Assembly: GCA_051294375.1 (NCBI GenBank)
Contig: CM119264.1
Location: forward strand, 20,550,248 to 20,614,247
Source of the DNA: Paraspadella gotoi
Taxonomy: Eukaryota > Animalia > Chaetognatha
Length of the DNA stretch: 64,000 nucleotides
Direction of reading: 5' to 3'
Made by a program: the position numbers and the translations under genes. The notes beneath the pieces were generated by a model, which saw nothing but the letters and a program-made list of their open reading frames with translations, did no database searches and had not been told where the DNA came from. Positions 11,701 through 14,700 of this stretch are shown piece after piece (within the stretch, counting starts at the first letter, position 1; every line of letters starts with the position of its first letter).

Positions 11701-14700
11701 ACATCAATGAATGAGTATCATCGCATCAATCATTTGGTTATTATCTCATCGATCATTTGGTTATCATCGCATCAATCATTTGGTTATCATCGCATCAATA
11801 CTTTTGTTATCATCGACATCGCATCAATATTTGGTTATCATTTAAGGGAGGCTCGATCCTATTCTTTTTTGGTGTCGTATCTCTCTCTCTCTCTCTCTCT
11901 CTCTCTCTCTCTCTCTCTCTCTCTCTCTCTCTCTCTCTCTCTCTCTCTCTCTCTCTCTACTCGATCCTCTCAAAACCCATGAGTGGGTACGACCTCCAAT
12001 CCACCATCTCGAACACTCCTGGTCTCTCTTCACAACCCCAGTACACCCCGGCCATTGGCCACAGAAAACCGTCGAGATTCTGGCCAAACTTTTCGGCGAA
12101 ATCGAATAGCGCGAACGAGAGCCTTTAGCGAAAGATTTCGGGCTCCGAGACAGATTTTAAGTCATGATCATTACAAAAAAATTCTCAAATTGGGAAATCC
12201 GTAAGAAACGTCGTTTTTCTTTCGCAGCCGCTCCGTCACCGCCGGCGTTTTGTTACTAGACTGCGTTTACCATCGATCATCGAAATCGACCGTGCATCTC
12301 AAAAATTCATCCAATGAGCTAAGAGCGTGGCTTCCTTAACTCCCGAAAAACGTTTACCCAACTCGCGCCATTTTCTGCTTTGCATTTCTTTTTCGAAAAT
12401 TAATTTATAATTCGAGATCTTGATTTATGTTATCAAACCCACCGAGAATTATTGTTTTTAATAATTTTTAGTATAAACCACAACACTTGTATCATCAATT
12501 TTAGTCTATTAAATATCATTTATATTTTTACTTATGGATTTACGTGCTCTACAAATATTTCAACGAAAAATAATAACGAAACAGTTTTATACGAAATTTA
12601 CCTCATGATATAAATTGATGAATTGGATAATTATTTTCAAACACCGGTCAGATTTTTTTCCCTTTTTTTTAACATGGAGTGAAAGCCCATGTGTTTTTTT
12701 ACGGGAGGTTTTAAAAACTGAAAATAAATCGAAAATTAAAATCAATAATGAAAATTTGTAAATCATTTCAAATGACAGTTGGAAAACATTTATACATACA
12801 TATTTTACTTTTATATTCAGTTTCATATTCATTATGGAGTAAAGTAACATAAAAAAATTGTTTCTCTTATGCACTGATTTTATCCACAAAAAAAATACTA
12901 TTATATTACAGTTTATTTTTTATTCAATATACGTTAATTTGCTTATACTGTAAAACTGTTAAACAAAAATAAAAGACACACACTGAACCAACTCGCCAGC
13001 GAAAATATTTTTTCAACAAATTAAATAGCCAAGAAAAAAAAACAAGTGAACAAGACCTAATCCAAAAACACTCTGAACCTTCCGTCGATGGCGCTGAACG
13101 GGGAATTCGATCCCGAGGCGGAGTTCGTCCCGACGCCGAGAAGAACGCGGACGAAAAAGACGGAGGCCTTGAGACTCTTGGCCGATATCGAATTTGACGG
13201 TATTACTTTTAATTTCAGTAATATAACTGGCGAGAATTTTAACACGATATTGATAAAGTGGCAATTAACAGCCAATGAAAAAATGTCGCCGCTTCAAGCC
13301 TCTCATTAAAAAAACTTTCACAAGATCGACGAGCCTCTCACTTTTTTATTGCAGGGCCTCTGATCGAACCCGGCAAAGAGGATCACTACAGCTCAGCGGC
13401 CAGAAAGGAGGAGCAACAACGGAGGGATAATTATGTGTTGACCTACGGGTGCGTCGTCCCGGACGAAGATCTCCTAGAATTTATTGCCAAACACGCACAC
13501 GGTAAAACCGCGTCTTTTTTTAAATCAGACAATAATTTTTTAAAACTACCGTAAGGGTAGAAGTAGAATAATTGATTATCTTTAAGCCCGGAAGCCTTTC
13601 TCAGGGACTAATAAGTATTGACTAGTGTATGGTAAACTGAAACATTACATGTTGAGTGATTGATTCTGCCCCAGGAGAAAAGGCAATAGAGCCCTGCGCG
13701 GGCACTGGCCTGTTGTCTTATCTCCTCAACGCTCTACATGACGTCGACGTCGTCGCCTCCGACGAATCTCCCTCGAAAATCAAGACCTACGGAAAAGTGG
13801 AGACGCTCGATGCAGTGGAGACTGTGAGGAAGTACAACGACGATTGCAGGTAAGAGAGAGAGAGAGAGAGAGAGAGAGAGAGAGAGAGAGAGAGAGAGAG
13901 AGAGAGAGAGAGAGAGAGAGAGAGAAAACTTTATCCACGCTTTCAAACCACTTCCCCAACCACCTCGACCACAACCGCCTTCAGCGTCCTCATCCTTTGC
14001 TGGCCTCCTCTCCTCGAAGTCGACTACGAGGCCATCATTCGGTTCCGCGGCAAAAAACTCATATACATCGGCGGCCGGCCCGGCGGCAAGGTCGGCAGCG
14101 AGAAATGCGCCGACATGCTGGCCAAGAGTTGGCGCCAAGTGGATCGCATCAACGTCAAGACTTGGTTCTTCGTCGAAGACGAAAACTGCGTCGTTTTCGA
14201 GAAGAAGTGAAGAAGAGGAGGGGGAAGAGGAAAGGTGAAGGGGGGAACTGTATCCATTTCGTAGAAGGAAGGAGGAAAAGTTTGGCTTAAATGAGGGGCA
14301 AAGGGGCGAGATTGGAAATTAAAGTAAATTGAAATTTCCTTTTTATATATTCCTTAAGAAGGATGGGTTTTAAGATGAATGATAATTCTAGATCTGGCCA
14401 TCTGGACTAAAATAGGGAAAAAGTTAATTCTCTAATTAAGACTTCGATATAAAGAAAAAAAGACTAATAAAAATAATTAAAAAAACTGAAAAAATGGAAT
14501 TTTAATTTTGAAAATTACGATAATTAGTTCAATGACTTAAATATTCGTTAATATTTATAGATCATAAAAAGCAAACCAGGTGAAGGGACTATCTTTTATT
14601 GTTATGTTTTTATTTTGGATTTTTTCTTAGTATTCTTAACATTCTTAGTTCTAATCTTTCCTCTTATGTTATAGCCGAATCCACGGCCACTTCAACGCCA

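Follow-up and report, generated by a model that had tools for sequence, protein, structure and literature searches.

Among gnathiferan animals, bdelloid rotifers offer the closest precedent for a foreign methyltransferase that was domesticated and has been maintained by selection, N4CMT, described in PMC8885841 as a permuted bacterial DNA enzyme with a catalytic SPPY motif and a chromodomain. The same paper gives SPPY, DPPY and NPPY as canonical amino-methyltransferase motifs and states that the change of SPPY to APPA abolishes N4CMT activity. Here we analysed a 64,000-nucleotide stretch of contig CM119264.1 (the window) with a candidate for a similar case, a gene at 13088 to 14210 on the plus strand. 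Its product belongs to another family, with a W-P-P motif, and has neither the rotifer motif nor a reader domain. The gene is intact, spliced and real. It is conserved and encodes a predicted methyltransferase of the WPP family; it likely entered the arrow-worm line at an early stage by horizontal transfer, with a large DNA virus as the probable source, and its pocket would have been remodelled. The chances of this explanation as a whole we judge to be about even. A domesticated foreign animal methyltransferase has its precedent in N4CMT, and new here would be the family, the probable donor, the host phylum and the altered active site.

The four exons join to a 660-nt frame of 219 amino acids plus stop, interrupted by three GT..AG introns of 155, 173 and 135 nt in phases 1, 1 and 2. 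The parts of the gene, in part delimited by contigs of run X1, are as follows.

12917 to 13087, plus strand: 5' untranslated region in the stretch covered by the X1 contig; the true start may lie farther 5'
13088 to 13199, plus strand: exon 1, with the start codon, the basic PTPRRxxTKK segment common to protein groups A and B (see below) and the first helix into G-P
13200 to 13354, plus strand: intron 1, 155 nt, GT..AG, phase 1, a joint in the X1 contig
13355 to 13501, plus strand: exon 2, with R61 retained and the family motif Y-[AS]-W-A-I-P changed to YGCVVP
13502 to 13674, plus strand: intron 2, 173 nt, GT..AG, phase 1, a joint in the X1 contig
13675 to 13849, plus strand: exon 3, with motif I EPCAGTG at 13689 to 13709 (putatively binding S-adenosylmethionine, SAM) and Asp116 of motif II at 13761 to 13763
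13850 to 13984, plus strand: intron 3, 135 nt, GT..AG, phase 2, with an AG microsatellite and an in-frame stop; its skipping follows from the coordinates of the contig pieces
13985 to 14210, plus strand: exon 4, with the strand-4 motif CWPP at 13998 to 14009, the strand-5 motif YIGG at 14064 to 14075 (YIGE in the family), W205 to D210 at 14163 to 14180, and the stop
14211 to 14808, plus strand: 3' untranslated region, with AATAAA at 14466 and a poly(A) loose end at 14485; contigs run on to 14808, a possible second end

The original prediction of an intact four-exon, 219-amino-acid gene antisense in a collagen intron proved exact in its exon model, and all motifs that it quoted are present. The spliced transcript that it proposed to look for was also found, since a 1,315-nt X1 contig spans 12917 to 14694 without any of the three introns. 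For intron 3 the record passes from 599 to 603 where the window passes from 13843 to 13982, which implies that exactly 135 nt are skipped; it was not reported as a joint because the alignment program skipped the AG repeat. Run X1 was taken as RNA by guess and is RNA-like in that introns 1 and 2 have no coverage; it may come from the source organism and so shows splicing rather than an independent sample. Retention of any single intron leads to a premature stop, at amino acid 74, 104 or 146. GC content is 0.54-0.58 in the exons versus 0.34-0.35 in introns 1 and 2. Diverged pieces of the gene are present in run X3, and none were found in run X2. Two contigs end in poly(A) at 14485, about 19 nt 3' of the AATAAA, where internal priming is possible because the genome is A-rich.

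Contamination or a proviral fragment was considered and rejected in view of the three spliceosomal introns, a GC content at third codon positions of 0.71 within the host range (0.44-0.86 in host exons), and the splicing of the host intron itself in X1. A GC- and CpG-rich island at 11960 to 12420, about 700 bp 5' of the start codon, may be a promoter or an upstream non-coding exon, and low-depth X1 pieces lie between this island and the gene at 12600 to 12713. The window gave no Rfam match.

A search with exon 4 returned five homologues of 74-81% identity, and their alignment retrieved 15 proteins, seven of group A, six of group B and two distant ones. Identity to the spliced window protein is 71-79% in group A and 41-45% in group B, and as six group A clusters are full-length at this identity, chance is ruled out. 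The single metagenome locus recovered (L008) is intronless and encodes the orthologue P0003, which is 77% identical to the window protein. Its first 21 nt are the 3' end of the chaetognath splice leader SL2.0, the sequence of which stands in Table 3 of PMC2481426. L008 is therefore taken as an mRNA with a chaetognath leader and P0003 as an arrow-worm protein, and in view of its identity to P0003 the window, too, most likely comes from an arrow worm. Within the window no 21-mer comes closer to this leader than five mismatches. As judged from sequence comparison the group A gene is under purifying selection, with a nonsynonymous difference (pN) of 0.15 and a synonymous one (pS) of 0.75 between the window gene and L008, a ratio of about 0.03 which is rough because synonymous divergence is saturated.

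Group B (P0025 to P0030) is itself conserved, is sister to group A in every tree and shares with it the N-terminal segment PTPRR..TKK.EAL.LLADIE. Its motif I is broken (E-L-[FY]-A-E-T-G) and D210 is absent, as are R61 and G96, and it is possibly a catalytically dead paralogue. An A:B heterodimer prediction, run without alignments and with partners possibly from different species, scored 0.01.

All five orthologues searched match PHROG 19090, a family with no function assigned, over profile positions 17-185 of 191 at E values from 1e-23 to 1e-25, the best being 1e-25, and they match proteins of phiCh1, phiH1 and HGTV-1. Further members were found in jumbo phages, including Goslar, Miami and LucasX. 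The known members (phiCh1 ORF83, phiH1_425, HGTV-1 gp67, Goslar gp111 and giant-virus entries of the BFVD database named 'Methyltransferase') have the same fold, with template-modelling (TM) scores of up to 0.76, and share R61, E92 with the GxG, D116, WPP, G167, G174, W205 and D210. The animal gene differs from them by being spliced, by a basic N-terminal extension and by replacement of W70, Y154, E175, C180 and F186.

A profile search of 1.84 billion representatives gave 7,184 clusters, 150 of them listed, without taxa; nearly all database matches carry no taxon. Only two of the 150 listed representatives, those of the A and B clusters, fall below E 1e-100, the next being at 6e-48, and identity to relatives outside groups A and B is about 33% at most. 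Among these representatives (150 matches listed) no close orthologue from beyond a single animal lineage was seen, and neither of the refuting findings named in the original prediction, clear orthologues across Metazoa or the lack of a spliced transcript, was obtained. Where relatives outside A and B carry a label, they belong to giant viruses, to jumbo or haloarchaeal phages and, in a few cases, to prokaryotes; the clusters shown as neighbours in the sequence atlas come from bacteria, archaea and viruses. With a strict family pattern, 56 stretches were hit in viral contigs versus 14 in 185,579 prokaryote genomes, and true members stand at 70 of the 71 loci examined from it. The small WPP-motif family of the original prediction is borne out for phages, giant viruses and bacteria; no microbial-eukaryote member was seen among the matches.

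With a second pattern, 17 more members came to light at 19 loci, and five of these members lie in giant-virus bins. All five giant-virus bins tested hold a member, but as the bins were found via the motif this count only confirms them. The giant-virus members L081 1527-2420 and L087 3692-4606 directly adjoin a MutS-HNH gene, which we take to be a Mimiviridae marker. When gene neighbours were clustered over the 71 loci, the groups obtained were shadows of the gene itself or came from near-identical genomes, so that unrelated loci had no neighbour family in common. In some members the domain is joined to TPR repeats, PhyH, a putative metallopeptidase or a MYND finger within one protein. Fusions to TPR arrays were seen in L071 2565-5180 and L073 4889-7348 (bacterial contigs) and in P0058, P0081 and P0113, some also with PhyH or DUF6782. 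The large-phage-like members L082, L089, L091, L095, P0063, P0144 and P0075 often have an M-[NS]-W-[YF]-K-like start, which may be a targeting or packaging signal, or are embedded in multi-domain proteins of 800-2,000 amino acids.

Viral contigs scanned with the proteins A1 and P0037 as seeds gave no matches, and Pfam and PDB-sequence searches with single exons and with full orthologues gave no useful one. For the five orthologues no methyltransferase Pfam was hit at E 1 or better, and the best NCBIfam match (E 0.014) was far below cut-offs. The literature search, which covered papers without their supplements, turned up neither an account of the gene nor an activity or solved structure ascribed to the family.

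An AlphaFold model of P0003 reached a predicted local distance difference test score (pLDDT) of 93.8 and shows a predicted class I SAM-dependent methyltransferase fold, with a Rossmann-like sheet and a C-terminal strand 6-7 hairpin, so that the original reading as a methyltransferase is borne out at the level of the fold. Apart from two short helices at the N terminus, the core fold accounts for all 219 amino acids. The PDB structures listed as matches are class I enzymes, with Z scores of up to 12.8. In Foldseek the top PDB rows were TrmA, RlmCD and a putative TrmK (E 1e-5 versus 4e-5 for the next family), and the VIA ranking placed catechol O-methyltransferase (COMT) first (Z 12.8, root-mean-square deviation (rmsd) 3.1, 165 residues aligned, 10% identity). 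The best BFVD matches were giant-virus proteins, with a TM score of 0.76 and E values from 7e-16 onward, followed by more giant viruses, phage Miami and two fish iridoviruses (ranks 13 and 16). The iridovirus entries, A0A7T3V892 and A0A192GR51, match in structure at E of about 1e-9 to 1e-8, and animal-infecting large DNA viruses may thus carry the family.

Residue conservation was counted in 125 family rows outside groups A and B. There R61 is present in 113, W70 in 101, E92 in 119, D116 in 123, W151 in all 125, Y154 in 99, E175 in 123 (D in the other two), C180 in 114, W205 in 118 and D210 in 124. In the six group A rows scored, R61, E92, the GxG (G96, G98), D116, W151-P-P, W205 and D210 are invariant, whereas C70, L or V at 154, G175 and K180 (or equivalent) stand in place of W70, Y154, E175 and C180. 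The near-invariant YIGE..GGC motif of the family and W70 are thus not kept in the animal proteins, which we read as a divergent sub-lineage and not as non-members. The G-P of exon 1 also occurs in many neighbouring viral rows of the alignment.

In the mechanism that we propose, E92-x-x-x-G-x-G and D116 would bind SAM, W151, W205, D210 and R61 would be in contact with the acceptor, and the chemistry of [DNS]PP[YFW] would not be used. SAM binding would have been retained and the acceptor pocket rebuilt, and the protein likely still acts as a methyltransferase with a remodelled substrate pocket.

The original prediction had read motif I followed by a strand-4 xPP motif as an amino-methyltransferase layout, which was dropped as an indication of mechanism. 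At strand 4 the family has W-P-P-Y, which lacks the polar D/N/S of [DNS]PP[YFW], and the gene has W-P-P-L, which lacks the aromatic residue as well; strand-4 xPP is not diagnostic, because E. coli TrmA has DPPR. EPCAG could not be upheld as an amino-methyltransferase feature either, because motif I reads E-I-G-A-G in the family, with G at position 94 in 112 of the 125 rows, so that EPCAG is a lineage-specific change. HemK/PrmC likewise has motif I before the strand-4 PP, and an hhalign comparison gave PrmC a probability of 82% over 35 columns of the motif I region, ending after motif II, but compared with HemK/PrmC and the other [DNS]PP[YFW] enzymes the gene has W in place of N/D/S and L in place of the aromatic residue. 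That the protein is a DNA or RNA amino-methyltransferase making N6-methyladenine or N4-methylcytosine, like rotifer N4CMT, we regard as highly improbable, and the same applies to DNA as substrate. Besides the layout itself, the position of the phiCh1 and phiH1 homologues immediately following an N4/N6 DNA methylase gene, weak PADLOC mad2 matches in 29 of 136 members (best E 3e-8) and M.BseCI at Foldseek rank 15 point to such an enzyme. Against it, the model has no target-recognition domain beyond the core and the two helices, 40 neighbour open reading frames from 13 loci include no restriction enzyme, and hhalign to M.PhiCh1-I gave a probability of 1%.

The 5-methyluridine enzymes TrmA, RlmD and RlmCD, the top Foldseek rows, also have xPP after strand 4 and an acidic residue in the last loop (FPxTxHxE versus PxWxGIHD here). 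However, their nucleophilic cysteine (YISC) faces Glu in the family (YIGE) and Gly in the arrow-worm protein (YIGG), and their TRAM and central domains are absent from it. A forced alignment was not significant (1.4%), and hhalign gave 11% for TrmA and 6% for RlmD, covering motif I only. For the substrate our lead guess, albeit a doubtful one, is a nucleoside of a structured RNA, for example of tRNA. It is drawn from the Foldseek ranking, the location of HGTV-1 gp67 in a tRNA array, the presence in jumbo phages and the basic N-terminal segment, each of which is weak. Members occur in Goslar-type jumbo phages, and for the group to which we take these to belong PMC7824862 reports few DNA-modification systems. 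A tRNA lies within about 5 kb at 16 of the 71 loci, with ten or more tRNAs at three, but among the matches listed at least 33 of 49 parent records have tRNAs in some place. The name 'tRNA methyltransferase' on the copy in one of 24 phage records is a depositor's label and was given no weight.

A target on a protein or on a hydroxyl of a small molecule or sugar, as in COMT, is possible though clearly short of probable; taken singly, we consider a protein unlikely and a small molecule or sugar hydroxyl more unlikely still. COMT and TrmR are of similar size, with N-terminal helices alike and the best VIA score, and the COMT alignment covers residues 22-219. The family fusions to TPR, PhyH, metallopeptidase and MYND domains and sugar-transferase domains in 3 of 40 neighbour open reading frames scanned also fit such a target. 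However, COMT shares only 10% identity, is tied with other class I enzymes and lies within about 1 Z unit of the RNA enzymes, and the neighbourhoods have no family that recurs across unrelated loci. The COMT metal motifs, which we take to be DHWK and DN, are absent from the arrow-worm protein, and E175, which presumably matches the COMT metal ligands by strand position, is lost here.

The same losses raise the alternative that the gene has the origin proposed but that its product binds SAM without catalysis or serves as a scaffold, which would hold all the more for group B; we rate this alternative as unlikely, if somewhat less so than an RNA target. Group A lost four highly conserved residues, including E175, which is E or D in all 125 outside rows, and group B, with R61, G96 and D210 gone as well, is still predicted to fold (pLDDT 85), its five other proteins being 81-90% identical to P0029. 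On the other side, the invariance of the motif residues listed above in the six group A rows speaks for a working site, and the group A substitutions are themselves fixed across these rows, which fits a new specificity too.

For the origin of the gene we return to the preferred explanation, in which an early member of the arrow-worm line likely acquired it horizontally, the probable donor being a large DNA virus. In a FastTree of 343 domain rows (near-duplicates and short matches removed) A and B form one clade with support 99 on a long branch, and a quick tree of 82 rows places them with four of the five giant-virus bins (support 80). In a careful tree of 47 rows the clade has support 100/99, is sister to P0039 at 83/91 and lies within 15 giant-virus-like rows at 89/97. 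On these trees A and B are monophyletic. Horizontal transfer rather than mass loss is quite probable as far as the sequences tell; a viral donor is slightly favoured, and a giant virus as donor is plausible at somewhat less than even chances. Introns would have been gained, and A and B duplicated, after arrival. The candidacy for horizontal transfer put forward originally gains from the distribution and from the nesting among giant-virus-like rows, and its weak part is the donor, the topology tests giving p 0.11-0.18.

Several points weigh against this explanation. Ten of the 15 'giant-virus-like' labels are our own judgement, the 47 rows were hand-picked, and the A+B branch is long (about 1.0). 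Approximately unbiased (AU) tests did not reject grouping of the giant-virus-like rows without the animal clade (p 0.18), A and B with large-phage rows (p 0.11), or A and B with prokaryote and archaeal-virus rows (p 0.15); as no alternative is rejected, the case for transfer rests mainly on distribution. With 150 of 7,184 clusters listed and nearly all without taxon, distant animal or protist members are possible. The X1 contig carries no splice leader, so that the phylum rests on the orthologue. The loss of W70, Y154, E175 and C180 means that activity is not assured, and the fold scores are tied overall, COMT (Z 12.8) being just ahead of a 5-methyluridine enzyme (Z 11.8, rmsd 2.8, 141 residues aligned) in VIA.

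The long branch and the indecisive AU tests would also fit vertical inheritance, in which an old eukaryotic family was lost in most animals, viruses borrowed it and fast arrow-worm evolution hides the link. Protist and fungal WPP proteins, which we take to be those of PANTHER PTHR39290 (no paper on it came up in the literature search), would fit it as well, and so would the fast evolution of gnathiferans stated in PMC12460157. This scenario seems unlikely to us, because it needs many independent losses, the atlas neighbours shown are bacterial, archaeal and viral, and no eukaryote-labelled match stands among the 150, 120 and 15 listed from collections including NCBI and UniRef, where almost none is labelled.

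The most specific version of the preferred explanation is a long shot: capture of a giant-virus gene by an arrow-worm ancestor, which would have acquired introns and a spliced leader, become an enzyme plus a degenerate copy, and had its active site rebuilt for an RNA mark that other animals lack. If true, the animal gene would be of giant-virus origin and as old as the phylum, and it would offer a first cellular entry point to a viral enzyme family of more than 7,000 clusters without known reaction. The nuclei of arrow worms are the site of assembly of a giant virus that is unsequenced and known by microscopy only (PMC6145532, also cited in PMC7162819), and a giant-virus donor would tie in with it. 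The arrow-worm genome paper PMC12460157 traces new genes to duplication and to novelty, and in the passages found rotifers are the one case for which it mentions horizontal transfer. A foreign gene that is old, under selection and interrupted by introns would place transfer beside these sources. The family is large and common in large viruses, and the well-folding small animal member, its degenerate sister and the intact viral members lend themselves to a comparative assay of the family target and of the changes made by domestication.

The host gene is a minus-strand multiplexin (collagen XV/XVIII), with Pfam matches to Collagen_trimer (E 2e-6) and Endostatin (E 1e-18 and 1e-14) and collagen XV as top PDB match. 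The methyltransferase gene is antisense to it and lies wholly within one intron.

14936 to 14993, minus strand: multiplexin exon, trimerization domain part 1, placed by loose ends of X1 and because it joins in frame with the exon that follows; alone without Pfam match
9969 to 14935, minus strand: multiplexin intron with the methyltransferase gene, splitting the trimerization domain, from X1 loose ends
9860 to 9968, minus strand: multiplexin exon, trimerization domain part 2, PF20010 at E 2e-6; 3' end approximate
8592 to 9072, minus strand: two multiplexin exons of the endostatin domain, from Pfam and PDB; boundaries approximate

The X1 loose ends at 14935 and 14994 lead, as we read the contig ends, into the adjoining collagen exons. 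The same intron holds an imperfect palindrome of 180 bp (82%) at 10870 to 11050 and a tandem array with a period of about 42 bp at 11624 to 11841. A very large multiplexin exon at 36189 to 37670 on the minus strand encodes a long acidic Ser/Asp-rich stretch followed by Gly-X-Y repeats. Between it and collagen exons at 55341 to 57924, and on the same strand, lie innexin exons at 52060 to 52575 and 53663 to 54049 (minus strand, Pfam E 6e-13 and 1.5e-4), which are either a same-strand nested gene or mark the border between two collagen genes. A 237-amino-acid frame at 56329 to 57042 on the minus strand, with no Pfam match at E 0.05, resembles what we take to be a Penelope-type GIY-YIG endonuclease and sits between look-alike flanks at about 55711 to 56028 and 56941 to 57246, which may be terminal repeats. 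A repeat of about 180 bp occurs in three copies that are 85-90% identical (17865 to 18050, 18273 to 18445 and 27483 to 27667); it has what we presume to be a B-box-like motif and is probably a short interspersed nuclear element. A protein-like open frame of 98 amino acids at 46545 to 46841 on the plus strand, without Pfam match, is possibly an exon of another nested gene.

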